From positions 71,246 through 129,191 of the forward strand of contig JAQBQT010000011.1 in assembly GCA_028286835.1 (NCBI GenBank): 57,946 bases of DNA, given 5' to 3'. Below, one piece after another: positions 23,724-50,651 of this stretch. Every line of letters starts with the position of its first letter. Position 1 is the first letter of the stretch. The DNA is from Candidatus Parcubacteria bacterium (GTDB taxonomy: Bacteria; Patescibacteriota; Minisyncoccia; Phycocordibacterales; PALSA-1337). The position numbers and the translations under genes were made by a program. The notes beneath the pieces are model-generated. The model was not told the DNA's origin. It did not search any database and saw only the letters and a program-made list of their open reading frames with translations.

Positions 23724-23882
23724 ACCCCTAGAATTTGTAACATTTATCTTCCTCATACGATTTATATATAAGTAGAGGCTAATGCTGCGCACGGATAGGT
23801 CATTCTATACTCAAAAGATGCCCCTAAATTAGACAAAAGACCCGAACCATGCTACAAACATTAGAGGGATCAATAACAGGTT

Positions 23883-24344: not shown

Positions 24345-24347
24345 ACT

Positions 24348-25130
24348 ATGTCTCATCAAAATACCACTCTAAAAAAGGTCAGCGTACTGATACCCTGCTA
24401 TAACGAAGTGGGTGGTATCGCAAACGTAATAAAGAGTTTCCCTTTCGAAAAGGCGCTCTCTCAGGGGTTTTTATTCGACATCATCGTCATCGACAATAAC
24501 TCGACAGATCAGACTGCGGATATTGCCCGTGCACATGGGGCTACTGTCCTCTTCGAACCTATGAAGGGCAAGGGTAATGCGATGAAACGCGGCTTCTATT
24601 CCATACCGACGGACACGGACTACGTAGTCATGCTAGATGGGGACGATACATATCGTCCCGAAGAGATCCTCCGCCTTATAGAGCCTCTTCATTCAGATTT
24701 CTGCGACGTTGTGATCGGTTCCCGCCTCAGCGGACGCATTATGAATGGTTCCATGAACAACCTCAACCGAGCGGGTAACTGGATCTACTCCCATTTGGTG
24801 CGCTATTTCTATAAGGTGAATGTCACAGACGTTCTCACAGGTTACTTCGCCTGGAAGAAATCTGCTCTCGAAGACCTCAGACCACACCTCTATTCTCAGG
24901 GCTTTGCCATTGAGATGGAGATGGTCACTAAGATGGCAAAATTGAATCAGCAAATCTGTTGCGTGCCTATCAGTTATCACATTCGCGCTGGAAGGACTAA
25001 TTTGAGCCCCGTACGCGATGGCATCCGTATCCTTTGGATGTTCACAAAGAACCTTTATTGGGCTCCCACTATCCCTACAAAGAAATCACTCGAAGAGTCT
25101 AAATTCGTCTCACAATTGCAGCAAGGTTAA
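24348..25130 (+). CDS. GT2 glycosyltransferase (polyprenol-phosphate glycosyltransferase-like)
   Basis: VSVLIPCYNE, VIDNNSTD, GKGNA, MLDGDDTY, VIGSR, DVLTGY, FAIEMEM. Confidence 0.92.
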   Translation: MSHQNTTLKKVSVLIPCYNEVGGIANVIKSFPFEKALSQGFLFDIIVIDNNSTDQTADIARAHGATVLFEPMKGKGNAMKRGFYSIPTDTDYVVMLDGDDTYRPEEILRLIEPLHSDFCDVVIGSRLSGRIMNGSMNNLNRAGNWIYSHLVRYFYKVNVTDVLTGYFAWKKSALEDLRPHLYSQGFAIEMEMVTKMAKLNQQICCVPISYHIRAGRTNLSPVRDGIRILWMFTKNLYWAPTIPTKKSLEESKFVSQLQQG

Positions 25131-25140
25131 CATCGTTCCG

Positions 25141-28539: not shown

Positions 28540-29698
28540 CCCCACTAACAACAAAAGGGCTCTTCCTCACATTGTCATCGCAACTGCCTATTTCTATCCA
28601 AAGATCGGAGGCGTTGAGAATTATTCCTACATGCTCGCTAAGAAGCTGCAAGAAAGCGGTGAATACACTGTAAGCATCATCACGAGCGACTACGACAATA
28701 CAAAAAACGCAAAACTGATTATCGATGGTATGACTGTATATCGCCTACCTGTGGGCTTCAGACTCTCCAACACTCCGATGAACCTGAGATGGTACTGGGA
28801 AATAAAGAAGATCCTTAAACAAGAGAAGCCCGATATACTTCATGTGCACTCCCCCGTCCCGTACCTTCCAGACATGGCTGCATGGGCAGGTAAAAATGTA
28901 CCCATGGTATTCACATACCATTCGGGCAGCATGAAAAAAGGCAAATGGCCTATCGATGCGCTAATACAGATCTACGAGAAAGTCTTCCTTGCAAAGATGT
29001 TCCAGCGAGCAAGGGCTGTTATCGCAATCTCACAAGAGTTCGTAAAAAATACATTTCCTCAGTACAAGAATAAAACCTTTTTCATTCCGACAGGAGTAGA
29101 TTTAGGCAGGTTTAAGAAGATGCCCTTACCCGCATCACAGCGAGTCACATACGTTGGTCGCATTGAACACAGCTCGAGCTGGAAAGGCATTGATTCATTG
29201 CTCCAAGCCATGACTATCGTCGTATCCCAATGCCCCGAGGCTACGCTTGAGCTTATTGGCGGCGGCGATGCACTCCCCCACTATAAGGAACGTGCGGCGC
29301 AACTCGGCATCGCCGAATCAGTCGTATTTTCTGGACCAAAACGAGGGGCCGAACTGGTCGAAGCATACAGCAGGTCCAACGTAGTCGTTTTATCTTCGAT
29401 ATCAGATTCGGAAGCTTTCAGCGTTACGCTCGTTGAAGCTATGGCATGCGGTAGGCCGATCGTCGGAACCAATATCGGAGGAACTCCTCAGCTCATAGAC
29501 CACGAGAAGAACGGCCTGCTTGTGGCTCCTAACAAGCCAGAAGAGCTTGCGGCTGCAATTATCAGAGTCCTCAACGATACAACTCTTGCACAAAACCTCG
29601 CGGCATCAGGAGCTGAGAGATCCATAGGTTTCTCATGGGATATCCAAGCGAAAAAATACTCCGACATTTTCCAGTCGATGTTAACCAAAAACATATGA
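28532..29698 (+). CDS. GT4 glycosyltransferase
   Basis: YFYPKIGGVEN, EAFSVTLVEAMACG. Close paralog of module 2 of the triple fusion. Confidence 0.92.
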   Translation: MNNPTNNKRALPHIVIATAYFYPKIGGVENYSYMLAKKLQESGEYTVSIITSDYDNTKNAKLIIDGMTVYRLPVGFRLSNTPMNLRWYWEIKKILKQEKPDILHVHSPVPYLPDMAAWAGKNVPMVFTYHSGSMKKGKWPIDALIQIYEKVFLAKMFQRARAVIAISQEFVKNTFPQYKNKTFFIPTGVDLGRFKKMPLPASQRVTYVGRIEHSSSWKGIDSLLQAMTIVVSQCPEATLELIGGGDALPHYKERAAQLGIAESVVFSGPKRGAELVEAYSRSNVVVLSSISDSEAFSVTLVEAMACGRPIVGTNIGGTPQLIDHEKNGLLVAPNKPEELAAAIIRVLNDTTLAQNLAASGAERSIGFSWDIQAKKYSDIFQSMLTKNI

Positions 29699-32031: not shown

Positions 32032-34393
32032 CCTTATCTTAAAACGCAAAGAGACCCCGTACCTGGAACAGCCATTCCCTCTGTATTTCCTATTGGGCCT
32101 CATCCTGGTCAACCTCATTGCTATCTTCAAATTTGATCCGTTTTATATCGGATCCTTTTTTGCGTTCTTCTACGTCATAATAACCCCAGGCCTCCTTGTC
32201 CTGCCTTTCCTGATTCACAAAAAATTCCCGCCCATGCTAGGCATTGCCATAAGCGCAGCATTGGGCATTCTGATACTCATGCTCGCAGGCCTGGTCATAA
32301 ATACCATGCTGCCCCTGATGGGCTTAGACGAGCCTCTTACGACGATACCGCTTCTGGTGATGTTTGACGTGATTGTGTATTTCGCACTCGTATGTAATTA
32401 CGAATTCAACAAACTTTTGCCATTCGAATTCAAGAATTTAAACGCATTCAATTGGTCCATTGTAGGAGCATCGCTTCTCACTCCTTTGTTCGCATGCATA
32501 GGCGCGATCATCCTTAACAACCAAGGCTCAAGTCTATTCGCCACCCTAGTTCTAGCCTTGCCTGTCGTACTGGTTCCAATAATCGTCTGGAAGAAGACCG
32601 GGATTGATCCGAATGTTCCTGCCATCGTGCTGTATCTCATAGCGCTAGGATTCCTCCTCACGAATTCGATGCGCGGATGGTACATATCTGGCCACGACAT
32701 ACTGCTTGAATATCACGTCTTCTCTGTGACCAACGCTGCACATCTATGGAACATGGCTTTCTATAGAGATCCCTATATGGCATGCCTCAGCTTAACCATA
32801 CTTCCTTCGTTCCTTCAGCAAGTCCTTCACATATCGCCCGAATACATCTTCAAATTCTTCATGCAATTCCTGGGAGCTTTTCCGGTGGTCGTCATCTTTT
32901 ATCTTGCTAAAGAATATGTCTCTGAGAAGATAGCCTTCCTGGTCGCCTTCTTATATATATCCTTCCCGACATTCTTAATCGATATGGCTTTCCTTAATCG
33001 CCAAGGCATTGCCTTTTTGTTCTTCTCCATCTTACTCCTATTCATTATGACGAAGAAATACGCAAAGGGTCCACAAAGAATGACCGCCCTTTTCCTCTTT
33101 GGCATTGGCATCATCATTTCGCACTACTCAACTTCATACGTAGCCATAGCGATGCTCGTGGGAACATACATCATCAATCGTGTAGCTAGGTTTATTGTTA
33201 CGACAAAGTGGCCCGCTTGGCTACAACGCCTGATGAACAAGCTTCCAAATCGTGATATGTATGATAAACCAATACTCATTAGCTTCCTATTCACTTTTGG
33301 CATGCTGGCGCTCATGCTGGTCTGGTCAACCCTCGTCACAAAGACGTCGACAAGCTTTTTCAATACGATCCAGCAGATTATCGTCACCGTCGAACGCCCA
33401 TTCAGCCTCGAAGAATCCTCTGGACAGGCCAATTACAGCCTCCTCCAACAGAAAAATAAGACTCCTCAGCAGCTATTCGATGAATTCAGAGCGGACGGCA
33501 TCAAACAAGTCCAAGTCAAAGAACATCTATCTGAGTTCTATCCCATAGCAATAACTGAGAGCTATCCTGCTATAGCCATCGCAGAGACTCCAACCCCACT
33601 CACATCGTTCGGCGAGAAGATCCAATCTATCGTGCGGGTGAATCTAACGTATCTTTTTGCTGTCATCAAACAGCTTTACGCAAAGATTATCCAGGTGTTC
33701 CTGCTTATAGGTCTCTTGGGACTCGTGCTCGGATTCAGCTTCAAGAAGAATATCTTGAGGAAAGTACCCGTAGAATATCTTGCGCTATCGACGGCCGGGC
33801 TTTGCATGATCGTGGCACAAACAATATTGCCCGCAAGCGCTATCGATTACGGCCTATTAAGGCTCTTGCAGCAGACGCTCATATTTCTATCATTACCGAC
33901 TATACTCGGGCTCATTCTCTTAACTTCTCTGGTGACCTACACCCCCAAGCGACAGCTCATCTCTTCGACGTGTGTCATCCTCTTTTTCTTTATAATTTTA
34001 TCCGGATTATTCCCACAATTGACTGGTGGAGCGAGATACCCACTTCCCCTTGATAATGCCGGCCTTTATTACGATTCATACTTCACTCATGGAGAAGAGG
34101 TCGCGTCCATCCAGTGGCTTGCGCAGAATGGAGATCACTCGCTACCGATCCAAGCTGCTCACTTCTCAGATATGAAGATGCTGGCATTTGGAAAGATCGG
34201 AGCATACATAGAGCTCCTACCTGAGACTACAAAGAAACGGTCGTACGTATATTTCAACTACGATAACACCAAAACAAATAACATCCTTGAGATCGTGAAC
34301 GGCAACGTCGTGTACTATCAATTCCCGACAATATTCCTGGATCGCTATAAGAGCCTTATTTATAGCAACGGGGGCAGCAAGATATTCCGCTAA
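32018..34393 (+). CDS. DUF2206-like polytopic membrane protein 1 (possible GT-C polymerase/transferase)
   Basis: More than 15 hydrophobic segments, ISGHDILLEY loop, ACLSLTILP, RQGIAFLFF, SHYSTSY, C-terminal IYSNGGSKIFR. Confidence 0.7.
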   Translation: MAFHSLILKRKETPYLEQPFPLYFLLGLILVNLIAIFKFDPFYIGSFFAFFYVIITPGLLVLPFLIHKKFPPMLGIAISAALGILILMLAGLVINTMLPLMGLDEPLTTIPLLVMFDVIVYFALVCNYEFNKLLPFEFKNLNAFNWSIVGASLLTPLFACIGAIILNNQGSSLFATLVLALPVVLVPIIVWKKTGIDPNVPAIVLYLIALGFLLTNSMRGWYISGHDILLEYHVFSVTNAAHLWNMAFYRDPYMACLSLTILPSFLQQVLHISPEYIFKFFMQFLGAFPVVVIFYLAKEYVSEKIAFLVAFLYISFPTFLIDMAFLNRQGIAFLFFSILLLFIMTKKYAKGPQRMTALFLFGIGIIISHYSTSYVAIAMLVGTYIINRVARFIVTTKWPAWLQRLMNKLPNRDMYDKPILISFLFTFGMLALMLVWSTLVTKTSTSFFNTIQQIIVTVERPFSLEESSGQANYSLLQQKNKTPQQLFDEFRADGIKQVQVKEHLSEFYPIAITESYPAIAIAETPTPLTSFGEKIQSIVRVNLTYLFAVIKQLYAKIIQVFLLIGLLGLVLGFSFKKNILRKVPVEYLALSTAGLCMIVAQTILPASAIDYGLLRLLQQTLIFLSLPTILGLILLTSLVTYTPKRQLISSTCVILFFFIILSGLFPQLTGGARYPLPLDNAGLYYDSYFTHGEEVASIQWLAQNGDHSLPIQAAHFSDMKMLAFGKIGAYIELLPETTKKRSYVYFNYDNTKTNNILEIVNGNVVYYQFPTIFLDRYKSLIYSNGGSKIFR

Positions 34394-34399
34394 TCTTCC

Positions 34400-35686
34400 A
34401 TGAGAATCCTTTTTATTTCAGAATATTACCCGCCCTATATCAAAGGAGGAGCAGAAGTAAGCACCTTTCTCTTAGTGAACCAGCTGGCGATAGAACATAC
34501 GATTACAATCGCATGCAGCAAGATCGCAACAGGACCATGGAACGAAAGGGGTGTTGAAGTGCATCCGATAATACGGAGGTTCACTCTGAAAAATAAAAAT
34601 ATACTATCGATCCTACAATACGGCTTTGGCATTATTTTCAATCCTTTAATCTCGGCCGTAGCCATCATTAGGCTAGCAAAGAAGGTTCGTCCGGAACTAG
34701 TGAACATAGTTCCCTCCTCGTACCAGTTCATTCCTATTGCACTGATCATGAGGCTCATCTTGGGCATACCGACAATCGTTGACTGCCGCGACTACAGCAT
34801 TATTTGTCCTGCCCATATGAATTGCGACAGATTCGACGATAGCATATTCAGAACCCATGGATACAGATGCCTTAGGACGTATAACGTGGAGAACAAATTC
34901 CTTTCACTTTTCATCGCCCCGTTCGCGTTATATGAATCGACTGTCTTTAATGCATACAAATATTCCCTGCGCTTCACGCTTGAACATGTGGACGGATTAA
35001 GGCTAATCACACTGAGCCGATATGTGCGAGATCAATTAGTACTGAATGGATTCGCTAAGAACAAGATATCCGTCATCGCTAACATCTGCGAGATCCCTGA
35101 CCGTGAACCGCAACAGGGAAAACTAGGATTGCCAACCTTTGCGTTCGCTGGCCGCCTGGAGAAAGGAAAAGGCGTCTGGGAGATCGTAATGGCGGCAGAG
35201 ATGTTACAGAAGCGCGGATATGATTTTGAAGTGCACATAGCAGGAACTGGAGATGAAGCTTCTAGTCTGGAGTCATATGTCAGAGACAATCCTAATACGC
35301 CGGTTAAATTATTGGGCAAAATGGATCATACTCAGGTGATGGAGCTCTATGAAGCGGCTACGGCCATCCTCGGGCCCTCACAGTGGCCAGAGCCCTTCGG
35401 ACGCTTCATTCTGGAAGCATTCAGTATGGGAAAACCGATAATCGCTACGCGAAGCGGTGGTATCCCTGAAGCAATTAATGATACAGTGACTGGAGTGCTT
35501 ATAGATCCAAAATCCCCTTCTCAATTAAGCTATGCGATGCAGTATTTCATCGATCATCCCGAAAAAGGCATAGCAATGAAAGCTGCGATCATTCGGGAAA
35601 GAGAGAAATACAAAGCAACTTGGATAGCGAAGGAGAGAGTAGGCATTTATGCGAATCTAATCGCACGTCAACACACATCTTTATGA
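34400..35686 (+). CDS. GT4 glycosyltransferase
   Basis: EYYPPYIKGGAE, FAGRLEKGKG, PEPFGRFILEAFSMGKP. Confidence 0.92.
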   Translation: MRILFISEYYPPYIKGGAEVSTFLLVNQLAIEHTITIACSKIATGPWNERGVEVHPIIRRFTLKNKNILSILQYGFGIIFNPLISAVAIIRLAKKVRPELVNIVPSSYQFIPIALIMRLILGIPTIVDCRDYSIICPAHMNCDRFDDSIFRTHGYRCLRTYNVENKFLSLFIAPFALYESTVFNAYKYSLRFTLEHVDGLRLITLSRYVRDQLVLNGFAKNKISVIANICEIPDREPQQGKLGLPTFAFAGRLEKGKGVWEIVMAAEMLQKRGYDFEVHIAGTGDEASSLESYVRDNPNTPVKLLGKMDHTQVMELYEAATAILGPSQWPEPFGRFILEAFSMGKPIIATRSGGIPEAINDTVTGVLIDPKSPSQLSYAMQYFIDHPEKGIAMKAAIIREREKYKATWIAKERVGIYANLIARQHTSL

Positions 35687-36567
35687 ATACACTAAAGGAA
35701 TCTTTAAGAAAAATCACTCCGCACTTCATCCTCGATATCGTTGGAAGATACGATTTTATCAAAAAAACCGAATTATTTTCAGAGAGGCCCTTTTATAGCA
35801 TGTGTAAGCTCTCACGCTGGATGTTCTTCGTTTGGACCAAAAGAGATGTTTCCTTCCGAACTCCCGATGGAACGAGATTCGTTTCGATGCCATATAATTT
35901 GAGCTCGTTTTTTGTTTGCTTTACAAATTACCGCGATCCGGCTATCCAGAAATTCATGACAACGCATCTAAAAACAGATGCTGTATATGTCGACGCTGGT
36001 GCCAATATAGGGACGTACAGTGTGAGGGCAGGACAATACCTCAAGCACGGCCAAGTCATTTCTTTTGAGGCACACCCGCTGATATTCTCTTATTTTGAAA
36101 GGAATATCAAACTAAACGGATTGCGTAATGTCAGATTATGCAATGTCGCGCTGGGCGCAGAGAATGGAGAGACCGAAATGGCGTATTCCAGTAAGAATGC
36201 CGGCGAGACACATATCGCGACGCCTGGCGAGCAGAAGATTAGCGTTCCTCTGCGGACGCTCGATAGTGCCCTTATGGAAATGAGCATTCGTGAGATCGAT
36301 TATTTGAAGATTGATGTCGAAGGGTTTGAGCTTCCTCTCCTGAAGGGTTCTAAGGAGATTGTGCGGAACAGCAAAAAGATAATCATCCAGACGGAATTGA
36401 ACAACAAGCATGCGCAAAGATACAATAATTCTGTAAAGGATCTAACGGACCTACTTATGAGCTGGGGGTTGGCACCGCACTCAATTGACAATAACGGACA
36501 ATCCCATACTATGGAGCCAAAGGAGCTTGAGGAGGATTGTGACGTGCTTTGGTGGAGAGAACAATAA
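35683..36567 (+). CDS. FkbM-family SAM-dependent methyltransferase
   Basis: VDAGANIG, FEAHP, NVALG, LKIDVEGFE. Start set to ATG 35683. Confidence 0.92.
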   Translation: MNTLKESLRKITPHFILDIVGRYDFIKKTELFSERPFYSMCKLSRWMFFVWTKRDVSFRTPDGTRFVSMPYNLSSFFVCFTNYRDPAIQKFMTTHLKTDAVYVDAGANIGTYSVRAGQYLKHGQVISFEAHPLIFSYFERNIKLNGLRNVRLCNVALGAENGETEMAYSSKNAGETHIATPGEQKISVPLRTLDSALMEMSIREIDYLKIDVEGFELPLLKGSKEIVRNSKKIIIQTELNNKHAQRYNNSVKDLTDLLMSWGLAPHSIDNNGQSHTMEPKELEEDCDVLWWREQ

Positions 36568-36576
36568 TCGATCAAG

Positions 36577-37839
36577 ATGAATACCACAGCAATAAAAAAA
36601 GAGGTCCATGTTAGATTTTCAGGAGGTAAAGTGAAACCTTTGATCCTCCTGATGAGTCTAAGTATTTTTGCTTTTTTTATTTTGGTCGGTTTCATCCGCT
36701 CGATTTCTCAAAACGAACCGCCTGCAGTTGTAACCCCGGCCCTCACCTCTACTACGACAACGGCGGCATCGACAACTTTCCCTAGTAAACCTAATCCCCC
36801 AGTAGTCACCCGCCCTACAACACCCGTAACCATAACGCCAAGCGGCCTTGCGGGGATCGGGCATGCAGTAGGAATCTCTGCCGGAGGATCTCTGTCGCGA
36901 ATGAGTCTGTCGGATATGAATGCGTATCTCGACCAAATGTCAGCCCTCGGCGTCACGTGGGTCAGGTTCGATGTCGAGTGGGGCATCGTTCAATATAATT
37001 CACCCAACAATTTCGACTGGAGCAATTTCGATGACCTTGTAAGTGCGATCAACTCCCACCATATGAATGGCCTAGGTATCATCCTTTTCACCCCAGCATG
37101 GGCTCGAAATCCATCCTGTACAGGTGGCGCAAAGTGCCCTCCAAACGATCCTCAACAGTTCGCAACATTCGCTGCTTCCCTCGCAAACCGATACAAAGAC
37201 AAAGGTATCCACGATTGGGAGATCTGGAACGAACCAAATAACTATGATTTTTGGGCGACAAAAACAGACTGCGTCGCATATACGAATCTTCTTAAGGTCA
37301 CATATCCTGCTATAAAGGCTGTTGACCCGCTCGCAGTCATCGTGAGCGGCGGTCTAGCTCCCGAAAATACCGACAACCACAACATATCTCAGATGGACTT
37401 CCTCAGGTGCATCTATGCCAATGGCGGGAAAGAGTATTTCGATGTGTTCGGTGACCACTCATACACATTTCCCTCCCTACCAAGCGATAATAAAACAAAT
37501 ATCTGGGCACAAATGTCTGTCACGTCTCCAAGCCTGCGCAGCATCATGATCGCGAACGGCGATGGCGCAAAAAAGACATGGATCACAGAATTTGGAGTTC
37601 CCACGAATGGCCCTAACTCAAACTGGTATGTAAGCGAAGCTCGACAAGCGCAAATGGTCGTAAGCTCGATGAATCTATACAAGACCTATGACTGGGCAGG
37701 GCCTATATTCTGGTACACGTTGAGAGATAATGGCACGTCAACGAATACAAATGAGAATTTCTTTGGGCTTATACGAGCGGACGGAAGCCTTAAACCTGCT
37801 TATACAACGCTCAAAGATATACTCTCTCACGGAATCTAA
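36577..37839 (+). CDS. Membrane-anchored clan GH-A glycoside hydrolase (GH5/GH39-like)
   Basis: N-terminal TM and P/T linker, WVRFD, TPAWA, WEIWNEPN (acid/base Glu), WITEFG (nucleophile Glu), FGLIR. Confidence 0.85.
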   Translation: MNTTAIKKEVHVRFSGGKVKPLILLMSLSIFAFFILVGFIRSISQNEPPAVVTPALTSTTTTAASTTFPSKPNPPVVTRPTTPVTITPSGLAGIGHAVGISAGGSLSRMSLSDMNAYLDQMSALGVTWVRFDVEWGIVQYNSPNNFDWSNFDDLVSAINSHHMNGLGIILFTPAWARNPSCTGGAKCPPNDPQQFATFAASLANRYKDKGIHDWEIWNEPNNYDFWATKTDCVAYTNLLKVTYPAIKAVDPLAVIVSGGLAPENTDNHNISQMDFLRCIYANGGKEYFDVFGDHSYTFPSLPSDNKTNIWAQMSVTSPSLRSIMIANGDGAKKTWITEFGVPTNGPNSNWYVSEARQAQMVVSSMNLYKTYDWAGPIFWYTLRDNGTSTNTNENFFGLIRADGSLKPAYTTLKDILSHGI

Positions 37840-37898
37840 TCACACCACGATAACCTTCTTCCACGCAAGGACAATATAGGGTATGCTGGATACTATAC

Positions 37899-40319
37899 AT
37901 GATGAAACGTATGGCCATTATGGCCATTTATATTTTATGTAGTACGTGTTCGCTGTCTCCTCTCACAAAAAAAGCCGAAGCCTCCACATTCTCTATCGGC
38001 GAACGTGTCTACATAGTAAATACCCTGAGGGTGCATAAGATACCCTCCAATTCCACCGACTCGATAGTCGGCGCGCATCCTGCTGGCAGCTTTGGAACGA
38101 TCATAAGTGGTCCCAAAGTAACATCTGCCTATACCTGGTGGCAGGTAGACTACGATTCAGGCGCAGACGGTTGGAGCGCATCGAATTGGCTCTTTCGTGC
38201 CCCCATCCAAACTATCGCTAAAAAAAATAGCATTGTCTCAAGCACGAATCTTTCAGGCACTATAGGAAATCAAACAGGGAACACTGCTGTGCAAGTCGGA
38301 AATCAAATACAGACCACAGCTAATCTGAAGGTACGTTCTGCTCCATCAGCTAACGGAGCACCCATTGGCAAGCATACTGTCGGGTCCAAAGGGACAGTTA
38401 CAGCAGGGCCAGTCTCAGCGAACGGTTATAAATGGTGGCACATCGAATACAGAGATGGACTATCAGGATGGAGCGCACAAGATTGGCTCGCACCCGCCGC
38501 AAGCTCTGCGCCTGTAATTCCGATCTCCACAGCCGACTCAGCGATGCCATCGACAGCAAATGATACTCCATCATATTCCGGAGAAGGCGGGGGTGGATCT
38601 GCAACACGTGCACCTGTCATACCGACACCACCAGTATCTACAAATACCGGAGGCGGTGGAGGCGGATCAGTACTACCGGCACCTATCATACCGACACCAC
38701 CAGTATCTACAAATACCGGAGGCGGTGGAGGCGGGAATCCATCTATCTCCGCACCGACTCCGACGACCTACACGTTAAATGCATCAAGCGACGTTGGCGG
38801 AACTATTTCTCCAACCGGATCTACAAAGATAAATAGCGGAGCTTCTCAGACATACCTCATCACCGCAGCTAGCGGCAAGAAGATTTCAACTGTCAGCATC
38901 GATGGAAAAGCTCTGTCAGGAACACCTTCAAGCTACGTCTTCTCAAATGTGACCGCAAACCATACCATACATGCTACGTTCGCCGTTTCTACAACAACAC
39001 CACCTTTACAGCTGACAGCGCCGACCATCACATCTTTCAAGGCGGGCACCTCAACGATAACGACTGGCAAATCTACTAGCTTGACCTGGATTGTTACTGG
39101 AACCCCGACGCCATCGATCAGCATCAATCAGGGCATTGGTACCATCATTGGAACAAGCTTGGTTCTGATCTCCCCTACCACTACCAAGGTATATACCCTG
39201 ACCGCATCGAATACGTCTGGCACAAAAACGGCTCAAGTCACCGTCATCGCCATCGCACCCAGCACCAGCACGCCAACCGCCAACGATCAGCCCCCAGCAA
39301 CACCTGCCACTGCCGGATCCAGTGCGGCAGCGCAGATCGGGCACACGGCCGGCATATCGGCGGGATGGCCCCTGTCACAGATGACGCCCGCAGCAATGAA
39401 TGCCTATCTCGATCGGCTTGTCGAACTCAAGGCGACTTGGGTACGGTTCGATATTGATTGGGACCTCATTCAAAAGGATTCGCAGAACGCATTCGACTGG
39501 AGCAAGATAGACAGCTTGGTTGCAGCTATAAACAGCCACCATCTGAGCGGTCTTGGCATACTACAATTCACGCCGGCCTGGGCTCGTAATTCTGCTTGTG
39601 CGAGCGGCAATAAATGTCCGCCGAACAAGTTCGACCAATTCGCGACGTTTGCCGCAGCCGCCGCCACCCGATACAAGGACAAAGGCATTCACACCTGGGA
39701 GATATGGAACGAGCCAAACAATGCCATCTTCTGGGCGCCACGTACTGATTGCGCTGCATATACGAGCCTGCTCAAAATCACGTACACGGCGATCAAAACT
39801 GCTGACCCAGGGGCCGTAGTCTTGAGCGGCGGCTTAGCTCCAGAACCCACTGATACCTACAACACTTCCCAAGCAGATTTCCTTAAGTGTATCTATACGA
39901 ATGGAGGCAAAGAGTATTTCGACGTCTTGGCTGACCACTCATATACATTCCCTGCTCTTCCTTCTGATAACAATACGAACATGTGGGCTCAAATGGCGGC
40001 GACAAACCCGAGCCTACGCAGCATCATGAGCACCAACGGGGATTCACATAAAAAAATGTGGATTACTGAATTCGGCACCCCTACGAATGGTCCTGATTCG
40101 AATACATTTGTTGATGAGGCTCGGCAATCTCTTATGGTCACAAGCGCCATGACTCTCTATAAGACCTATGATTGGGCCGGGCCGATATTCTGGTACACAT
40201 TGAATGACCTTGGTATATCAACGAGCACTATCGAGAACTTCTTCGGATTAATCCGAGCAGATGGAAGCCTAAAGCCAGCATTCACGACTCTCAAAAATAT
40301 CATAAACGCTGGCCTATGA
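37899..40319 (+). CDS. Secreted multidomain glycoside hydrolase: 2x SH3b-like, P/G/T linker, beta-sandwich modules, GH-A catalytic domain
   Basis: Signal peptide (KAEA/S), two ...GP...GY.WW.V.Y..G..GW modules, WEIWNEPN and WITEFG. Catalytic domain is a paralog of the preceding gene. Confidence 0.8.
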   Translation: MMKRMAIMAIYILCSTCSLSPLTKKAEASTFSIGERVYIVNTLRVHKIPSNSTDSIVGAHPAGSFGTIISGPKVTSAYTWWQVDYDSGADGWSASNWLFRAPIQTIAKKNSIVSSTNLSGTIGNQTGNTAVQVGNQIQTTANLKVRSAPSANGAPIGKHTVGSKGTVTAGPVSANGYKWWHIEYRDGLSGWSAQDWLAPAASSAPVIPISTADSAMPSTANDTPSYSGEGGGGSATRAPVIPTPPVSTNTGGGGGGSVLPAPIIPTPPVSTNTGGGGGGNPSISAPTPTTYTLNASSDVGGTISPTGSTKINSGASQTYLITAASGKKISTVSIDGKALSGTPSSYVFSNVTANHTIHATFAVSTTTPPLQLTAPTITSFKAGTSTITTGKSTSLTWIVTGTPTPSISINQGIGTIIGTSLVLISPTTTKVYTLTASNTSGTKTAQVTVIAIAPSTSTPTANDQPPATPATAGSSAAAQIGHTAGISAGWPLSQMTPAAMNAYLDRLVELKATWVRFDIDWDLIQKDSQNAFDWSKIDSLVAAINSHHLSGLGILQFTPAWARNSACASGNKCPPNKFDQFATFAAAAATRYKDKGIHTWEIWNEPNNAIFWAPRTDCAAYTSLLKITYTAIKTADPGAVVLSGGLAPEPTDTYNTSQADFLKCIYTNGGKEYFDVLADHSYTFPALPSDNNTNMWAQMAATNPSLRSIMSTNGDSHKKMWITEFGTPTNGPDSNTFVDEARQSLMVTSAMTLYKTYDWAGPIFWYTLNDLGISTSTIENFFGLIRADGSLKPAFTTLKNIINAGL
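38611..38734 (+). repeat. Intragenic 55-nt direct repeat (period 69 nt)
   Basis: 38611-38665 and 38680-38734 differ at one base and encode P(V/I)IPTPPVSTNTGGGGG twice. Confidence 0.9.
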
Positions 40320-42664
40320 TCTCATCTAAGGGAATAGCTAAAATATCGGTTGCGTGGATGATAGTCACAACCTGTGTTGTTTTCATCCCCAGCATTTCTG
40401 CGTGGATCGCAACCCCTTTCGTCTTGGTTGGCATTATATTCGTGCCCGGTCTATTGCTTGCCGTCAATCTGGGGATCCATCGAAAAAGTATCCTCGAATA
40501 TATCCCCTACTCATTAGGACTCGGGCTCGGATTCGTGATTATAGGCGGATTGGCTTTGAACTGGGTATTACCGCACGCAGGCGTATCCGCTCCTCTTGCG
40601 CGGGTGCCGCTTATTGTATTCTTCAATTGCTCTGTACTGGTATTAGCTGTAATAGCTTACAAATTTAAAACCGTGGAGACAGAGTTTGAAATTGGTTGGC
40701 CTGACGTAACAAGTGTGTTATTCGGGACAGTGCCCCTGCTCTTCGTAGTAGCGAACGTAGTCGGAGCAGAAAGATTGAACAACGGACAGAACGGAATAAT
40801 GACACTCACGACGTTGGCATGCACCACAATCTACTTCTTAATTCTATCCTGTCAGAAAAAACAGCCCAAAGAGTGGGTGTACATCTGGTCTCTATACTGT
40901 ACCTCCCTCTCGCTTTTACTTATGTACTCATTAAGAAGCTCCCATATATTCGGCTGGGATATCAACCAGGAATACCAAGTATTTCAGGCAACACTCCAAC
41001 ATCTTGTGTGGAAAGTATCCTATTATCCTAATTTCGACTACAACGCCTGTCTGAGCATCACTATATTGCCAACGATTCTGAAGGTACTAACGAACATATC
41101 AAGCGAATATGTATTTAAAATCACATATCAGCTCATTTTTGCTGCTGTTCCAGCCCTCGTATACTTACTCTGCAAACGGTACCTCACTCAAAATCTAGCA
41201 TTCGTAGCGGCATTTCTATTACTGTCACAGAGATGGTTTTACGAACAAATGCCTGCTTTGATACGGCAAGAGATCGCATTCATATTCTATATATTCATAC
41301 TCATCGCGCTCTTTGATACAGATTTGTCTAAACGAACCCGCTATACCCTATTATCTATATTCACTACTGCTCTGGTGCTTTCTCATTACTCAACGACATA
41401 TATTTGGATCGCCGTGATGTTTGGAGGACTCGCTATGTCTTATCCTGCGCGCTTTTTCATCAAATCATTGCGCAAACAAAAACCAGTCATCAGCCCGATC
41501 ATACTAATCTTCACAATCATCATCCTGGCGGTATGGGAGATACCGGTAACGCATACCGGGAGTGCCCTTTCTAAATTTGCCACAAATCAAAATCCTTTAG
41601 GTGCAACAAAGCCCGCAGCAGATGTACCACCACAGACAGTCCAGCATCCGGAGAATACAAGTGATGGTATAAATATCGACACCAAAACTATAGCCCACGA
41701 TGCTCCTGCAGCCCAGGCGGATACTATGGCCCACAAACTCATACAGCAGCTTTCTTTTGCGACCACAAACCCAAACAGTCAAACTAATCTGGAGATAGCG
41801 TACCAAAAAATTATTAATGCTTATGGTAACCCTACCAAATACGATATATACAGCGATGGATCAAACTCACACTATATGCCACGTGTTGTAAATAATACGG
41901 CTCACATGTCGCCCCAAATAAATCCATCCTTATCGACAATCATCCGCTTCGCCGAAACAACTTCTAAAATAGTCCTCATAGATATGTTCCCTATTGCTGG
42001 GATAATTGTCCTTTGTTTGCGCCTTCGAAAACGAGAGTCCAGCACCACATACGACCTCATTCTCATAAACATGAGTGCACTCGGACTTATAACACTTACC
42101 CTTCTCGTCCCCTATCTTCAGGACTACTACAATCTAACCCGGCTCTACCTGCAAATGTTCATTTTAATCTGCATGCTTTCTATCGTTGGGGGGATGGCAC
42201 TACTCAAATCGCTTCCACGGTATCAAATCGAAATTCTTGCATGCATTGTGGCGATTATGTTCTGTTCCCAAAGCGGATTATTTGAACAATTTACGGGGGG
42301 AGAAAAGCGACTCACACTCAATTCTCTTCCAGGGAATCTGGATATCTACTATACATATGACAGCGATATTGCCGGCGCCAAATGGTTGGCTAAAAATAGA
42401 GACCCTATCGCCCCAATCCAATCTGACATTATATCCTCATTGCGCCTCCAGTCATTTGGAGATATAGCAGCGGGTAATTTTGCAATACTTCCCCAAACTC
42501 TTCGTCGAAATAGTTATGTGTATCTGACAAATCTAAACATTAATTCAGGAAAAAACTTCTACCAGTACGAAAATAATCTTTTGATATTCAACTATCCCTT
42601 AGAATTCCTCGACTCGCACAAGAATCTCATCTATAGCGCCGGGGGATCAAGAATTTACAGGTAA
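40316..42664 (+). CDS. DUF2206-like polytopic membrane protein 2
   Basis: IFGWDINQEY, ACLSITILP, RQEIAFIF, SHYSTTY, C-terminal IYSAGGSRIYR. Distant paralog of 32018..34393. Confidence 0.7.
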   Translation: MISSKGIAKISVAWMIVTTCVVFIPSISAWIATPFVLVGIIFVPGLLLAVNLGIHRKSILEYIPYSLGLGLGFVIIGGLALNWVLPHAGVSAPLARVPLIVFFNCSVLVLAVIAYKFKTVETEFEIGWPDVTSVLFGTVPLLFVVANVVGAERLNNGQNGIMTLTTLACTTIYFLILSCQKKQPKEWVYIWSLYCTSLSLLLMYSLRSSHIFGWDINQEYQVFQATLQHLVWKVSYYPNFDYNACLSITILPTILKVLTNISSEYVFKITYQLIFAAVPALVYLLCKRYLTQNLAFVAAFLLLSQRWFYEQMPALIRQEIAFIFYIFILIALFDTDLSKRTRYTLLSIFTTALVLSHYSTTYIWIAVMFGGLAMSYPARFFIKSLRKQKPVISPIILIFTIIILAVWEIPVTHTGSALSKFATNQNPLGATKPAADVPPQTVQHPENTSDGINIDTKTIAHDAPAAQADTMAHKLIQQLSFATTNPNSQTNLEIAYQKIINAYGNPTKYDIYSDGSNSHYMPRVVNNTAHMSPQINPSLSTIIRFAETTSKIVLIDMFPIAGIIVLCLRLRKRESSTTYDLILINMSALGLITLTLLVPYLQDYYNLTRLYLQMFILICMLSIVGGMALLKSLPRYQIEILACIVAIMFCSQSGLFEQFTGGEKRLTLNSLPGNLDIYYTYDSDIAGAKWLAKNRDPIAPIQSDIISSLRLQSFGDIAAGNFAILPQTLRRNSYVYLTNLNINSGKNFYQYENNLLIFNYPLEFLDSHKNLIYSAGGSRIYR

Positions 42665-43930
42665 CCCTGGGGTCGGACGATTCCTGTATAGGAATATGTA
42701 CACGAAGGCGATTATTGCAGCCACAAGATTGCCTACCAGCCACGCTATAGCGATCCAGGATAGCCCCTTATTAGCCCAAAACACCGCCAAGAAGGCCACA
42801 ACCCCTGCATATACTACATTCGTTATGACCAGAGCATACATCTGATGCCTGATCCTCAATAAGACGCTGCCAATATTGAATGCTGCGACAGCTGGGGCCG
42901 CAAGCGCCAAGAGGGCTATGACCTCTGAACCTCCAGAGCTATATGACTTACCAAAAAATCTTAAAATGTCAGGGCCAAAAAACGCGAGGATGAGACCTGC
43001 AGGTAACATCAAGAACACCATTATTTTTAGCGAACCCTTGATGAGATCTCGTATAGATTTCTCGCTGTACGATCCTTCGGCGAATAGAGACTGAGAGACC
43101 GACGCTGAAACTGTGTAAAGTAAATTGATGATCATGAAGGCCAGATAGAAGTACCCTGCCGCATCAGCCCCCAAGCGGCCGATGATGATAATCGGCAATA
43201 TCGAAGTCGGCACTATACTAAAAAGATTTGCGAGATAATTAGTAAATGAATAATGCAATACTTTCTGGAGTATTTCCTTATCGATTCTGATCTCTGGACG
43301 ATACCCGAACTTGATATACAGCAAAGTGAAGCTCACGAGCATTCCGATCGAGACGGCGAGGCCCGAAGCCGCGAATATGCCGTAGGCTCCGACCCCAATA
43401 AAAACAAAAGGCAGTAGAAGCTTAGCGACGCTAATGATGATACCGTCAGTGAGAAAGTTATACTGAGCTGCTCTATATGCGATGAATATGCTATCGCTCA
43501 AAGAGTTCGCTGCTGCAAAAGTGACCATGATGACGAAACCTATGGAGTACCATACGTTCTCCCGGATGATGCCTAAAGATGGCGTTATATACGGAATTAG
43601 GATGATATAAGCTATCGAGATCAGTGCAGCAGCCCCCATTACTATGATCGATCCAGTATTGATCTCCTTATTCCTGTTCTGGGAGCTAGGCAAGAACCTG
43701 ACAAACGTACTATTGAAACCGAAAAGGCTTACGAATGAGATGAGTGTCATCGCCGAGATAAGCGTCGTGCTCACCCCGATCTGGCTTGGGGTAAAAATAT
43801 GAGTGCAAACCAGCCAAAAGAAAAAGCCGAAGCCGCCCATAGTACCAGTCGTCAGCATAAGATAAATAGAATTCCGGAAAAGATTGTCTTCCAAAAAGTG
43901 TTTCCAGAGAAGATTGAAAGGCTTAGTCAT
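42647..43930 (-). CDS. Oligosaccharide flippase (Wzx/MOP superfamily)
   Basis: FRNSIYLM, FGFNSTFVRFLP, GADAAGYFYLA, SLFAEGS, 12 or more TM segments. Start set to ATG 43930. Confidence 0.88.
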   Translation of the reverse strand: MTKPFNLLWKHFLEDNLFRNSIYLMLTTGTMGGFGFFFWLVCTHIFTPSQIGVSTTLISAMTLISFVSLFGFNSTFVRFLPSSQNRNKEINTGSIIVMGAAALISIAYIILIPYITPSLGIIRENVWYSIGFVIMVTFAAANSLSDSIFIAYRAAQYNFLTDGIIISVAKLLLPFVFIGVGAYGIFAASGLAVSIGMLVSFTLLYIKFGYRPEIRIDKEILQKVLHYSFTNYLANLFSIVPTSILPIIIIGRLGADAAGYFYLAFMIINLLYTVSASVSQSLFAEGSYSEKSIRDLIKGSLKIMVFLMLPAGLILAFFGPDILRFFGKSYSSGGSEVIALLALAAPAVAAFNIGSVLLRIRHQMYALVITNVVYAGVVAFLAVFWANKGLSWIAIAWLVGNLVAAIIAFVYIFLYRNRPTPGLPVNS

Positions 43931-43999
43931 TCGAGTATATATTACATTACGTTTTCTTTTATACCTCGTCAACCTGATGTCTTCATGTATAATTGCAGC

Positions 44000-44218
44000 A
44001 TGAAAGCACTTAAGGCCCTCACCTTTACACTATTCTTTTTCGGTTTTGCTGGATGGTTTTATATTGCAGAAAATGCTGCGTTTCATCCCAATACTCTTGT
44101 ATTGCCGCTCACACATCTCGCTTCATGGCCTCGCGAAGATACATTCGGGATCATTTGCTTTGGACTCTCCTTCTTAAGCCTTTTCATCTACATGCTTATA
44201 AAAGATAGGAATAAATGA
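44000..44218 (+). CDS. Small two-TM membrane protein (72 aa)
   Basis: MKALKALTFTLFFFGFAGWFYIA...HLASWPREDTFGIICFGLSF. TATAAT lies 6 nt before the ATG. Confidence 0.7.
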   Translation: MKALKALTFTLFFFGFAGWFYIAENAAFHPNTLVLPLTHLASWPREDTFGIICFGLSFLSLFIYMLIKDRNK

Positions 44219-44220
44219 TG

Positions 44221-44294
44221 TCCGCCCTCATGGATTCGAACCATGGACCCCAGAGGTATAAGCTCTGTGCTCTAACCAACTGAGCTAAGGGCGG
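44221..44294 (-). tRNA. tRNA-Ile with UAU anticodon, CCA not encoded
   Basis: CCGCCCT-TA-GCTC-AGTTGGTTA-GAGC-A-CAGAG-CT TAT AC-CTCTG-GGGTC-CATGG-TTCGAAT-CCATG-AGGGCGG-A. All stems pair fully. Confidence 0.9.
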
Positions 44295-44397
44295 AAGCGA
44301 GGAGGAATGAATAAAGCCTTGCCTTACTCATTCAGTCCGAGCGCACCGTCCGCACGAGCGAAGCGAGTATGGGCGGGCGCATGCCACAGCTTAGAAC

Positions 44398-44430
44398 AAA
44401 AAAAGCCGCCCGACAACGCCGGGCGGCAAA
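44398..44430 (-). terminator. Intrinsic terminator
   Basis: GCCGCCCG-loop-CGGGCGGC followed by T7 on the minus strand. Confidence 0.85.
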
Positions 44431-44448: not shown

Positions 44449-44844
44449 TCATGCTGCCCTGATAGCGCTGCCCCATGGCAGAGAATTGAGAGGCGGCATA
44501 TACGTCTTAGGGCAGAGGTTATGGATCAGCTCCTGCCGCACTTCTTCAGGATAGGGCCCGAGATTCGTTCCGATCATGGAGGCAATGAAGATATACTGCG
44601 TGACCTCCTCAGGAAGATCGAGGAGCTTTGCGGCATCCCACTCATCATCAGACGTTAAGGCCGGCCTGAAGCCCATGACCTCATTCGCAACGGCACAGAG
44701 CGGATGCCAGAACGTAAGCGGCATTTCAGCGACGGCATCATCCGCCCGTATAAGAGAGATCTCACTGGTCCGGGAGAGCAGGACGCATTCCCAGCGAGTC
44801 CGAACAAGATCGCGGCAGCAGGCAAAGAAGTATTTGGTTTTCAT
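44449..44844 (-). CDS. Hypothetical protein (131 aa)
   Basis: Open frame with its own terminator between ftsH and tRNA-Ile. No recognised motif. Confidence 0.6.
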   Translation of the reverse strand: MKTKYFFACCRDLVRTRWECVLLSRTSEISLIRADDAVAEMPLTFWHPLCAVANEVMGFRPALTSDDEWDAAKLLDLPEEVTQYIFIASMIGTNLGPYPEEVRQELIHNLCPKTYMPPLNSLPWGSAIRAA

Positions 44845-44892: not shown

Positions 44893-46818
44893 TCAGATGA
44901 CCTTCTTCTCCTTCTTGAGGACGATGCCGTTCGCCGATACGATCTTCTCATATTCCTCGCGCTCGATGGTCTCGGTTTCGACGAGGCGCTTGGCCACGAC
45001 CTCAAAAGCCTGCTTGTGCTCGTTCAGCACCTTTTCCGCCTGAGTGCGGGCCTCGGTCATGATGCGGGTGACTTCCCCATCAATCTCGGCCGATACCTTC
45101 TCGGAATATTCCTTGCCTTCTACGCCCATGCCGAACATCGGCCTGCCGTGCCCGCTCTCGAGAGCGACCGGGCCTATCTTCTCGGACATGCCATACCTCG
45201 TGACCATGTCGCGCGCGAGAGCGGTCGAGACCTGGAGATCGTTGGAAGCTCCTGTCGTCATGTCATCGAAGACCATGCGCTCCGCGACATACCCTCCGAG
45301 CGAAACGGCAATGTCGTCCAGGAATTCCTTGCGCGACTGGAGCTTGCGGTCCTCGAACGGCAGCTTGAGCGTGTAACCTGCGGCGCGTCCGCGTGAAATG
45401 ATAGATATCTTGTGCACCGGATCGGCGTGCGGAAGGACCGAAGAGACGATGGCGTGGCCGGCCTCATGATATGCGGTGATCTCCTTCTCGTGCGGAGAAA
45501 GGACGTGGCTCTTCCTCTCGGGACCGAGCATGACCTTCTCGATGGAACGTATGAAATCGAACTGGCCGATGGTAGTGCGGCCTTCGCGGGCGGCAAGGAT
45601 GGCGGCTTCGTTCGTGAGGGAGGCGAGATCAGCGCCGGAGAATCCAGGAGTGCGCTCGGCGATGACGTGCATATTCACGTCTTCAGCGAGCTGCTTCTTG
45701 CTGATATGGACCTGAAGGATGGCTTCGCGGTCGAAGCGGTCAGGAAGGTCGATGGTGACGCGGCGGTCGAAGCGGCCCGGGCGGAGCAATGCCGGATCGA
45801 GAACATCGGGCCTGTTCGTGGCGGCCATGACGATGACTTTCTCGTTCGGCTCGAAGCCGTCCATTTCGACAAGGATCTGGTTCAATGTCTGCTCGCGCTC
45901 ATCGTTGCCTCCGCCGAATCCGCCGCCGCGGGCGCGGCCGACGGCATCTATCTCATCCACGAAGACGATGGCGGGTGCAGTGTCCTTGGCCATCTTAAAG
46001 AGATCGCGTACGCGGGATGCGCCGACGCCCACGAACATCTCCACGAATTCAGAACCCGAGATGGAGAAGAACGCCACGCCTGCTTCGCCTGCGACCGCGC
46101 GTGCGAGCAAGGTCTTTCCTGTGCCCGGAGCGCCCATGAGCAGTACGCCCTTCGGGATCTCTGCGCCGATGTCTATGAATTTCTTTGGATTCTTGAGAAA
46201 GTCCACGATCTCCATCAATTCCTGCTTGGCTTCCTTTGCACCCGCGACATCCTTGAACGTGATGCGCTGCTTGGTGTCTTCAGGCAATGTGATGCGCGCC
46301 TTGGATTGGCCGAACGAGAGAGCTGCGACGCCGGCACCCTTCATCTGACGCGAGATGAGCCACACAAAGAATATGAGGAAGAGAATCGGGGCGAGGAACG
46401 GAGCGAGTTGGATGAGCCAGTACACGAAACCACCCTGTTCTGCGATGGCGATGGTCGTCGAGGCGAGCTGGCCTTCGGTCACGCCGAATCGCGACAAAGA
46501 TTCCGTGAGCGAGGAATCGGTTTCCTTCTGCGATGTCTTCACTGTCTTGTCGGCATACTGTGCCTTGATAGTCGTGTCCTGGACTGTGAGCGACGTGATG
46601 AGGCCCTTCTTCAGGTCATCGGCGATGATGGAGAGCGGCACGGACTGCACCGTCTGACTCTGGGATGAATACTCTGCGTATATTCCGGTGATAAGGAGGA
46701 AGACCAGAATGACCGTGGCGATGATGTTCACGAAATTCCAGCGCGGGGGCATGAAACCAGGGCGTTTGAGCCCGTTTTTACCCTGCCCAGGAGGGGTGTT
46801 GTTTGAAAATGGCGGCAT
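44893..46818 (-). CDS. ftsH: ATP-dependent zinc metalloprotease FtsH
   Basis: Two TMs, [20 protein letters not shown] motif [26 protein letters not shown]. Start set to ATG 46818. Confidence 0.98.
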
Positions 46819-46864
46819 GGGGTGATTATACAGAAATGCGGGGAAATAGGAAGAAAAGGCGGGC

Positions 46865-46907
46865 AAAAGAAAACAGCCCTTCTTCCCCATGAAGAGAGGC
46901 TGTTTTC
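46865..46907 (-). terminator. Intrinsic terminator
   Basis: GAAAACAGCC...GGCTGTTTTC hairpin followed by TTTT on the minus strand. Confidence 0.75.
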
Positions 46908-50197: not shown

Positions 50198-50288
50198 ATT
50201 GATGACAGAAAAAGCGGCTTTGAAACCGCTATTCTGTCCCTGCCTCTCAGGGTATTTATCCTCCCAGAGGCTCAAAAAGGGGTGCTAG

Positions 50289-50651
50289 TGGAGATGGCGG
50301 GAATCGAACCCGCGTGCAATCGAGGCTGTCCGGACGGTTCTACGACGGTAGTCATCTTTGTGGTTTAGTGAACGGACTCAAAAGAAGACAAAACGCACAT
50401 TCACGATCTCTATGGTTCGGGTAGTAAGGTGAGAAACCCTACTGCCCTACATCCAGGTTATGACATCGCACTAAGGTCAGGATCCCCCTAGATTGACGCG
50501 CACTACTTAAGCGAGTGCGAATGCAAAGTCCTTGGCTCCGAAATACGGAGATACGGTGTTTTTAGCATTTCGAGTTTCCAACGGATTAACGAGTCGCTGG
50601 TGCTCGCGCCGCGCGAACGGAAGCCGGCAATTGTCTATGCCGATCATCCCC
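50289..50651 (-). ncRNA. ssrA: tmRNA
   Basis: 5' GGGGATG pairs with 3' CATCTCC-A with a G3-U70 wobble. T-arm GCGGG-TTCGATT-CCCGC. Internal tag ORF 50566-50507. Adjacent to smpB. Confidence 0.96.

Follow-up and report, generated by a model that had tools for sequence, protein, structure and literature searches.

The 57,946-nt stretch of DNA analysed here (contig JAQBQT010000011.1 of assembly GCA_028286835.1, positions 71,246 to 129,191; hereafter the window) carries a gene for an isoleucine transfer RNA (tRNA) with the anticodon UAU. This gene, tRNA-Ile(UAU), is with good confidence a functional and vertically inherited gene of a Paceibacteria bacterium, whose product would decode AUA for the whole genome and not for the glycan-synthesis island that adjoins it. 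According to the textbooks, nearly all bacteria depend on the essential lysidine enzyme TilS because AUA, but not AUG, has to be read as isoleucine. The results suggest that a large lineage may read AUA without this enzyme.

The gene was compared across the ftsH neighbourhoods of the best 80 FtsH relatives among species-representative genomes (numbers such as L001 and L013 denote these loci, and L104 to L176 denote metagenome contigs). All 80 relatives are labelled either as members of the Candidate Phyla Radiation (CPR)/Patescibacteria or as 'uncultured bacterium', and none bears a non-CPR name. The closest, with an FtsH 83% identical to that of the window, is labelled Minisyncoccia. The informative names are Candidatus Taylorbacteria (up to 79%), Nomura-, Adler-, Kaiser- and Zambryskiibacteria, and Paceibacterota/Parcubacteria, and about half of the relatives are third-party assemblies under the generic label 'uncultured Candidatus Saccharibacteria'. 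One soil metagenome run contains the window DNA at a depth of about 10x and includes 99% of the sampled words. Judging from the FtsH relationships, the host is a soil CPR bacterium of the class Paceibacteria/Parcubacteria, near Candidatus Taylorbacteria.

The tRNA-Ile(UAU) gene between ftsH and recG

tRNA genes were called with ARAGORN in the window and the 80 loci, and with Rfam RF00005 (gathering score 29) in the window. ARAGORN calls two tRNAs in the window in all, one of which is a tRNA-Ile(tat) at 44220-44294 on the minus strand; RF00005 matches 44294..44221 with 69 bits (E 5.3e-13) and flags no non-canonical pair. The RNA reads, 5' to 3', CCGCCCUUAGCUCAGUUGGUUAGAGCACAGAGCUUAUACCUCUGGGGUCCAUGGUUCGAAUCCAUGAGGGCGGA. 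Its acceptor stem consists of seven pairs (CCGCCCU/AGGGCGG), the D, anticodon and T stems are likewise fully paired, and the anticodon loop is C32-U33-U34-A35-U36-A37-C38. CCA is absent from the gene, the genome having A73-C-A-U at this place. The original prediction, made from the sequence alone, of a genuine tRNA-Ile with a UAU anticodon in a perfectly paired 74-nt cloverleaf is thus borne out by the agreement of the two programs, and the loop, A73, C1-G72, C4-G69, U12-A23 and C38 that it described are found in the sequence and the Rfam alignment.

A tRNA-Ile(tat) was called in 68 of the 80 loci, at a median of 362 bp downstream of ftsH (range -4 to 5310 bp); in the other 12 loci the available sequence ends 26 to 4511 bp beyond ftsH. 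The commonest order is SmpB, transfer-messenger RNA (tmRNA), FtsH, tRNA-Ile(UAU) and a convergent RecG, followed in some loci by tRNA-Ser(GCU). RecG adjoins the tRNA in 54 relatives, at distances of 3 bp to 6.1 kb, and ends 3 bp from it in the closest relative, L001. From this synteny, tRNA-Ile(UAU) is best regarded as a vertically inherited core gene, located between ftsH and recG across the class Paceibacteria. The UAU tRNA was correctly anticipated as a trait of the lineage and not a one-off, since homologues occupy the same place in 68 of the 80 loci, and its supposed tie to an ATA-using island gives way to this class-wide position.

The 69 copies (63 distinct sequences) share the anticodon loop CUUAUAC, except for two with CUUAUAU. 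RNAalifold, run on 42 of the distinct sequences, gives a cloverleaf in which 16 of the 21 pairs show compensatory double changes and U12-A23, G53-C61 and A73 are invariant. The structure is, on this evidence of covariation, under selection, and the gene is neither a pseudogene nor a chance match. C1-G72 and C38 had been called unusual. The former is not unusual in this group, being found in 15 of the 42 sequences, and the latter, present in 67 of the 69 copies, is a fixed feature of the family.

In E. coli the identity elements for IleRS (isoleucyl-tRNA synthetase) are A73, A37 (as N6-threonylcarbamoyladenosine, t6A), A38, C4-G69, U12-A23 and C29-G41, a set defined for the type-1 enzyme; A38 is reportedly included in the set of Nureki in 1994. 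Among the homologues A73, A37 and U12-A23 are invariant and C29-G41 is variable. C4-G69 is present in the window tRNA and in 37 of the 42 sequences. The C32/C38 loop context is also found in many bacterial elongator tRNA-Met genes. The assignment to isoleucine is based on the anticodon and on the codon alignments described below, not on similarity of the tRNA body.

Two very different bodies of tRNA-Ile(UAU) occur at the same ftsH-recG locus among close relatives (FtsH 69-83% identical to that of the window), one in L001, L004, L006 and L007 and the other in the window, L002 and L003; of the two types, one starts with CCGCCCUUAGCUCAGUUGGUUAGAGC and the other with GCACGCGUAGCUCAAUGGUAGAGC. The pattern suggests either that the gene was replaced through recombination or that compensatory changes arose very rapidly.

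In the soil metagenome containing the window, exact contigs span the gene without any difference, and related tRNA contigs stack over it to a word depth of about 700. Variants with a share of at least 10% were sought in the assembled contigs of three soil runs of one study, including the run holding the window. In the run holding the window they occur only at 44250 and 44252, in the anticodon-stem/variable-loop region, and in all three runs none was found at 44258-44260. No C at the wobble position, the change that would overturn the UAU anticodon, is therefore seen in these contigs at that share, and UAU stands. An identical 75-77-nt tRNA sequence is contained in three of four metatranscriptome assemblies (soil, plant and wastewater), and one with two differences in the fourth (wood decay); these contigs are compatible with transcription of the tRNA in other species, short of proof.

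The proposed course of events is as follows. Transcription of the gene would start at a promoter of its own, beyond the ftsH terminator, and the transcript would be trimmed and supplied with CCA post-transcriptionally, because CCA is not encoded. A37 would probably be converted to t6A; TsaD is present in a relative. The IleRS of the lineage, which appears to have a type-2 C-terminus in relatives, may charge the tRNA with isoleucine, and AUA would be read through U34-A pairing. Misreading of AUG may be limited by the state of U34 (unmodified or specially modified), by the C32/C38 loop, or by the ribosome, as in Mycoplasma mobile.

IleRS, TilS and the decoding of AUA

To establish the meaning of ATA, 81 FtsH genes were aligned and the residues of the other sequences were tabulated opposite each ATA, ATT, ATC and ATG codon. 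The 939 ATA codons are aligned with I in 52%, V in 17%, L in 14% and M in 3% of the cases. The corresponding values are I 48%, V 21% and L 17% for ATT, and I 53%, V 19% and L 14% for ATC; the profile of ATG (L 27%, V 17%, I 16%) is clearly different. There are 241 ATA codons in the 13 columns with at least 90% Ile, and a single one in the eight conserved Met columns. ATA means isoleucine in this lineage, because its profile matches those of ATT and ATC and it is nearly absent from the conserved Met columns.

ATA is also used heavily. Its frequency per 1000 codons in the window is 12.1 in the core genes, 28.5 in the glycan block and 21.8 in a second low-GC block. The core genes (for example at 287-23723 and 44449-57729) contain 127 ATA codons versus 85 ATT and 510 ATC, at a G+C content in third codon positions (GC3) of about 0.75. 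Of the codons for Ile in FtsH, 25% are ATA across the class. The heavy use in core genes implies that tRNA-Ile(UAU) serves the whole genome and not just the island. The island was rightly described as rich in ATA, but this is not peculiar to it, considering that the core genes also use ATA freely, and more often than ATT. An excess of ATA over ATT at a GC3 of about 0.75 is unusual for a bacterium, and it fits a Watson-Crick reader of AUA that is preferred over G34-U wobble on AUU.

Whether TilS is retained besides this tRNA was approached with a PP-loop motif and a TilS hidden Markov model (HMM) built from nine true TilS and searched at E up to 10. None of the 4510 open reading frames (ORFs) in the 80 loci plus the window (1.28 Mb) was matched; with this HMM, at least 18 TilS were detected among 0.69 Mb of metagenome loci used as a control. 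In the control loci tilS lies directly downstream of a CAU tRNA in 12 of 73 cases, with ftsH next in about five, and eight sampled tilS-like ORFs all pass TIGR02432. By these searches the tilS-ftsH linkage, common in other bacteria, is missing from the ftsH loci of Paceibacteria. A cluster of a CAU tRNA with a C38 loop (Ile2 or elongator Met), tilS and ftsH was seen in many unrelated bacteria (L104, L113, L145, L157 and L176); in some of these clusters mnmA and a LarE-like PP-loop gene come first.

The sole CAU tRNA in the Paceibacteria loci examined is elongator-Met-like, has A38 and is located in L067. When metagenomes were scanned for the CAU version of the loop (CTCATAC), no match was found in a Paceibacteria context; the pattern is unspecific, and matched elongator-Met-like and Ile2-like tRNAs of many bacteria. 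A protein-database search with the Aquifex TilS (identical to PDB 1WY5) gave only Aquificae among the matches listed, which are ranked by closeness and so do not form a test of absence.

For a U34 anticodon to be accepted, a type-1 IleRS would require Arg/Lys at the Trp905 position; the alternative would be a type-2 enzyme. The IleRS gene is not located in the window or the 80 loci. In published annotation tables of two cultured or enriched relatives, one being Minisyncoccus archaeiphilus (the class's cultured type) and the other a Paceibacterales bin, IleRS has the domains tRNA-synt_1, Anticodon_1 and PF19302 (DUF5915) and no zinc-finger domain. PF19302 is presumably the type-2 IleRS C-terminus, and the IleRS of these two Paceibacteria would then have a C-terminus of type 2 (archaeal/eukaryote-like). 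The tilS-less Bifidobacterium and Neorickettsia also have an eukaryote-type IleRS (PMC3575796). No K04075 or lysidine synthase is listed in the portions covered by the tables, which amount to about 45% of the genome in one case and to about 830 genes, from a bin that is itself incomplete, in the other.

The Paceibacterales bin contains one gene named TilS by Prokka, without a KEGG orthology (KO) number, whose best match is an N-acetyl sugar amidotransferase (a PP-loop protein) in a glycan cluster. Its IleRS gene, PMX_810_sub_00382 (3504 nt; supplement of PMC10936435), also encodes a histidine-phosphatase domain and is therefore mislabelled GpmB by Prokka. Genes mislabelled in this manner would mislead name-based surveys of TilS in CPR.

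Taken together, the loss of TilS in this organism appears somewhat more probable than its retention, and the same modest preference applies to the proposal that tRNA-Ile(UAU) has replaced the TilS/tRNA-Ile2(CAU) system. The broader proposal, that the whole class Paceibacteria gave up lysidine and TilS, AUA being read by a U34 tRNA with a fixed C32/C38 loop and a type-2 IleRS, is about evenly balanced.

Several points weigh against a functional tRNA-Ile that stands in for TilS. The 67 of 69 copies that have C38 depart from the A38 of the E. coli isoleucine set. The nearest E. coli tRNA by BLAST is a tRNA-Arg (79%), so that body similarity gives no support for isoleucine. The metatranscriptome contigs have low depth and flanks unlike those of the window, and may stem from DNA carry-over. 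The evidence on TilS and tRNA-Ile2(CAU) covers about 58 kb of the host and the ftsH neighbourhoods of relatives, and the two annotation tables, given the portions that they cover, are weak evidence. Lastly, both systems are documented to co-occur in Lactobacillus casei, Cyanothece PCC 7424 and Ferrimonas (PMC3575796).

This last point leads to the strongest alternative, in which tilS and tRNA-Ile2(CAU) are kept and the UAU tRNA is an additional AUA reader supporting the high usage of AUA, a redundancy of the kind proposed for those three. A tilS gene elsewhere in the genome is compatible with the data, and one Paceibacteria bin does contain a gene labelled TilS. That label, however, lacks a KO and falls on the sugar amidotransferase mentioned above, and the 1.28 Mb of Paceibacteria loci contain no TilS. 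Moreover, the known cases of co-occurrence are sporadic species and not whole classes, and one would not expect a redundant tRNA to be kept class-wide where the genome measures about 1 Mb and has about 44 tRNAs. A redundant decoder is considered a serious possibility, although a less probable one than the replacement of TilS by tRNA-Ile(UAU).

The glycan island and other features of the window

The features discussed are listed in Table 1. On the 3' side of tRNA-Ile(UAU), the GC content is lowered between 23.8 and 44.2 kb, to about 0.45 as against about 0.56. This 20.5-kb block encodes, by Pfam, glycosyltransferases of families 2 (GT2) and 4 (GT4), a flippase, an FkbM methyltransferase, two membrane proteins with DUF2206 and two GH5-like proteins. 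Among its 13 genes, a GT2 alone is matched in the 80 related loci by homologues that span half the gene or more, and this in four loci. The distance between tRNA and recG is 20.5 kb in the window versus 3 bp to 6.1 kb in the 54 relatives. Because 12 of the 13 genes lack homologues in the related loci and the gap exceeds the 6.1 kb reached there, the block is considered a real lineage-specific insertion on the 3' side of the tRNA.

Table 1. Position, strand and basis of assignment of the features in the window
Feature	Position	Strand	Basis and remarks
tRNA-Ser(GCU)	20372..20459	-	ARAGORN and Rfam; in 27 related loci, 26 of them also with tRNA-Ile(UAU)
RecG helicase	21444..23723	+	Pfam; flanks the tRNA 3' side in relatives, 20.5 kb off here
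Glycan block, lineage-specific insertion, 13 genes	23724..44220	.	Composition, Pfam
tRNA-Ile(UAU) gene, 74 nt (position 1 to A73)	44221..44294	-	ARAGORN, Rfam RF00005, homologues in 68/80 loci
Anticodon U34-A35-U36 (+ strand ATA) within loop CUUAUAC	44258..44260	-	Sequence; loop identical in 67/69 homologues
Intrinsic-terminator-like hairpin (10 pairs, 9 G-C) with T-run	44395..44427	-	Consensus scan
131-aa ORF between ftsH and tRNA-Ile(UAU), lineage-specific	44449..44844	-	Family searches
FtsH protease	44893..46890	-	Pfam Peptidase_M41 and AAA; 60-83% identical orthologues in 80 Paceibacteria loci
tmRNA	50286..50651	-	Rfam RF00023, 94.7 bits; upstream of ftsH in most relatives
SmpB	50680-51126		Pfam; conserved upstream part of the synteny block with tmRNA

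As the original prediction had it, the 3' end of the minus-strand tRNA (44221), which points to the lower-numbered side, faces the glycan island; it abuts this low-GC block, which the relatives lack. The further suggestion of that prediction, that the 3' end resembles an integration site, is not backed by the hallmarks of such a site. No integrase was found among the ORFs of the block, all of which are glycan-related or without a match in Pfam and PHROGs. When the tRNA 3' segment was compared with the far border of the block (23.6-24 kb), no repeat of at least 14 nt was found. The larger inserts that relatives have at the tRNA/recG junction encode no integrases; they code for surface proteins or for a ribonucleotide reductase of class II. 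It appears that a separate, later insertion brought the block into a variable junction, which probably took in the surface-glycan cluster via recombination. Even if TilS is retained, the fixed ftsH-tRNA-Ile(UAU)-recG locus is useful as a synteny marker, and would be a hot spot at which surface-glycan genes recombine.

The 3' ends of tRNA genes are classic targets of integration, and the tRNA might conceivably have arrived with the AT-rich glycan island or another mobile element, its 3' end being an att site. The abutting 20.5-kb block with its GC content of 0.45 and 28.5 ATA per 1000 codons, absent from the relatives, would be in keeping with such an origin. The tRNA is nevertheless found at the same ftsH-recG position in 68 of the 80 relatives, which lack the island, and the integrase, the tRNA 3' repeat and integrase-bearing inserts in relatives are all wanting; the closest phage tRNAs reach 81% at most and are annotated as Arg or Met. 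Arrival as island or phage cargo is highly unlikely, and was rejected on account of the synteny and the lack of a close phage tRNA.

Most improbable of all is a reassignment of the codon, in which the UAU tRNA would be charged with methionine or another amino acid and AUA would not mean isoleucine, as in some mitochondria: CPR lineages recode UGA and the C32/C38 loop is common to many elongator tRNA-Met genes, but MetRS depends on C34, and the codon-by-column analysis of FtsH, with 1 ATA in Met columns versus 241 in Ile columns and an alignment like that of ATT and ATC, contradicts it, so that it was rejected.

Within the island, multi-module glycosyltransferases are encoded at 25018-28539 and 29635-32031, with three GT4 units in an ORF of 1173 aa and two in one of 798 aa. 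The two DUF2206 membrane proteins, of a family that is mainly archaeal, are about 790 aa each. A 69-nt tandem duplication (38572-38709) is located inside an SH3-GH5 gene.

On the other side of the tRNA, the hairpin would act as a strong terminator, at 44427-44405, that ends the transcript of ftsH and the 131-aa ORF. The tRNA probably has its own promoter within 44295-44394, because the upstream transcript is closed by this terminator; a consensus scan of the same interval gave no sigma-70-like match. The 131-aa ORF has no match in Pfam, NCBIfam or PHROG and no homologue in the 80 related loci.

Besides FtsH, SmpB with tmRNA, and RecG, the window codes for LigA, a type IV pilus set, TyrRS, endonuclease V, the glycosyltransferase block, IF3 and NDK. 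The tmRNA was missed by ARAGORN, although ARAGORN calls the tmRNA in most relatives; its tag, read by eye from the Rfam alignment, would be AKNTVSPYFGAKDFAFALA, similar to the tags of the relatives. Most relatives have no more than about 1 kb between the tmRNA and ftsH. Here a second low-GC block (0.42-0.47) occupies 46891-50285, between ftsH and the tmRNA 3' end. It contains four ORFs, three without a family and one Clp_N-like, the latter flanked by a 71-nt direct repeat (48218-48288 and 48913-48983, 86% identical). Searches of this block for an integrase and for att repeats were negative.

A type-II tRNA-Ser with the anticodon ACU (A34) is present in seven Paceibacteria loci and absent from the window. 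The sites are L013 14871-14960, L020 17255-17344, L021 14396-14485, L050 18391-18478, L065 13968-14057, L077 14169-14256 and L080 15469-15554, and in five of the seven loci the gene lies within a few hundred bp of tRNA-Ser(GCU). Apart from that of Arg-ACG, bacteria very rarely have anticodons starting with A. Were its A34 deaminated to inosine, tRNA-Ser(ACU) would misread AGA.

Comparison with known systems

Bacterial decoding of AUA by tRNA-Ile(UAU) is already known from Mycoplasma mobile, Bifidobacterium and Neorickettsia, and a survey with tRNAscan-SE 2.0 found the tRNA in 17 genomes of three genera (PMC8450103). It has also been recorded in 19 species of tRNADB-CE and in 371 metagenomic sequences of unknown origin (PMC3575796). 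In the full-text literature searched, no paper ties lysidine, TilS, AUA or tRNA-Ile anticodons to Patescibacteria, CPR or Parcubacteria. The class-wide syntenic occurrence in Paceibacteria therefore appears to be undescribed in that literature.

If TilS has indeed been given up across the class, it would be dispensable over a much wider phylogenetic range than hitherto assumed. Paceibacteria are one of the largest bacterial radiations, and no other clade of TilS-independent bacteria would come near them in size, with AUA favoured over AUU in its core genes. TilS (TIGR02432), which we take to be one of the bac120 markers of GTDB, would be systematically missing from these genomes. The lineage would further offer a natural system in which to study how the misreading of AUG through U34-G pairing is avoided by a streamlined ribosome and tRNA, and the cultured Minisyncoccus would be a tractable model for U34-based decoding of AUA.

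The arrangement at the junction is similar to tRNA- and tmRNA-associated genomic islands in that a deviant, lineage-specific block is located at the tRNA 3' end and a second low-GC block at the tmRNA 3' end, but it lacks an integrase, a direct repeat of the tRNA 3' end and mobility genes. In its content of glycan-synthesis genes it is closer to a replaceable surface-polysaccharide locus than to a tRNA-targeted island.

With respect to decoding, Lactobacillus casei, Cyanothece PCC 7424 and Ferrimonas balearica also possess tRNA-Ile(UAU) and represent the state that would apply here if tilS were kept. Their cases are, however, sporadic and at the species level, and do not involve a conserved syntenic gene of a class.

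Bifidobacterium and Neorickettsia share with the present case a genomically encoded UAU tRNA-Ile, and have a type-2 IleRS (PMC3575796, PMC8450103); an IleRS with a presumed type-2 C-terminus (PF19302, no zinc-binding domain) is seen here in relatives of the organism. In these few genera the loss of tilS is documented. Here the loss is putative, and the tRNA, with its C38 loop, is conserved at a fixed locus across a class-level CPR radiation.

In Mycoplasma mobile, likewise a bacterium with a reduced genome, a UAU tRNA reads AUA and the same problem of AUG misreading by U34 is faced (PMC3575796). There, it has been found by experiment that Arg865 of a type-1 IleRS recognises U34, that U34 is unmodified and that discrimination takes place at the level of the ribosome (PMC3575796). 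The IleRS of Paceibacteria appears to differ from this type 1.

The closest ecological and evolutionary parallel to CPR is provided by Nanoarchaeum equitans and Korarchaeum cryptofilum, ultra-small and host-dependent (DPANN-type) organisms in which a U34 tRNA replaced the C34-modifying enzyme (PMC8450103, PMC3575796). These are Archaea, and the enzyme lost is TiaS, which is associated with agmatidine, and not TilS. If the proposed loss of TilS is correct, CPR bacteria and DPANN archaea would exhibit a convergent simplification, with Paceibacteria as the bacterial counterpart of the TiaS-less Nanoarchaeota.

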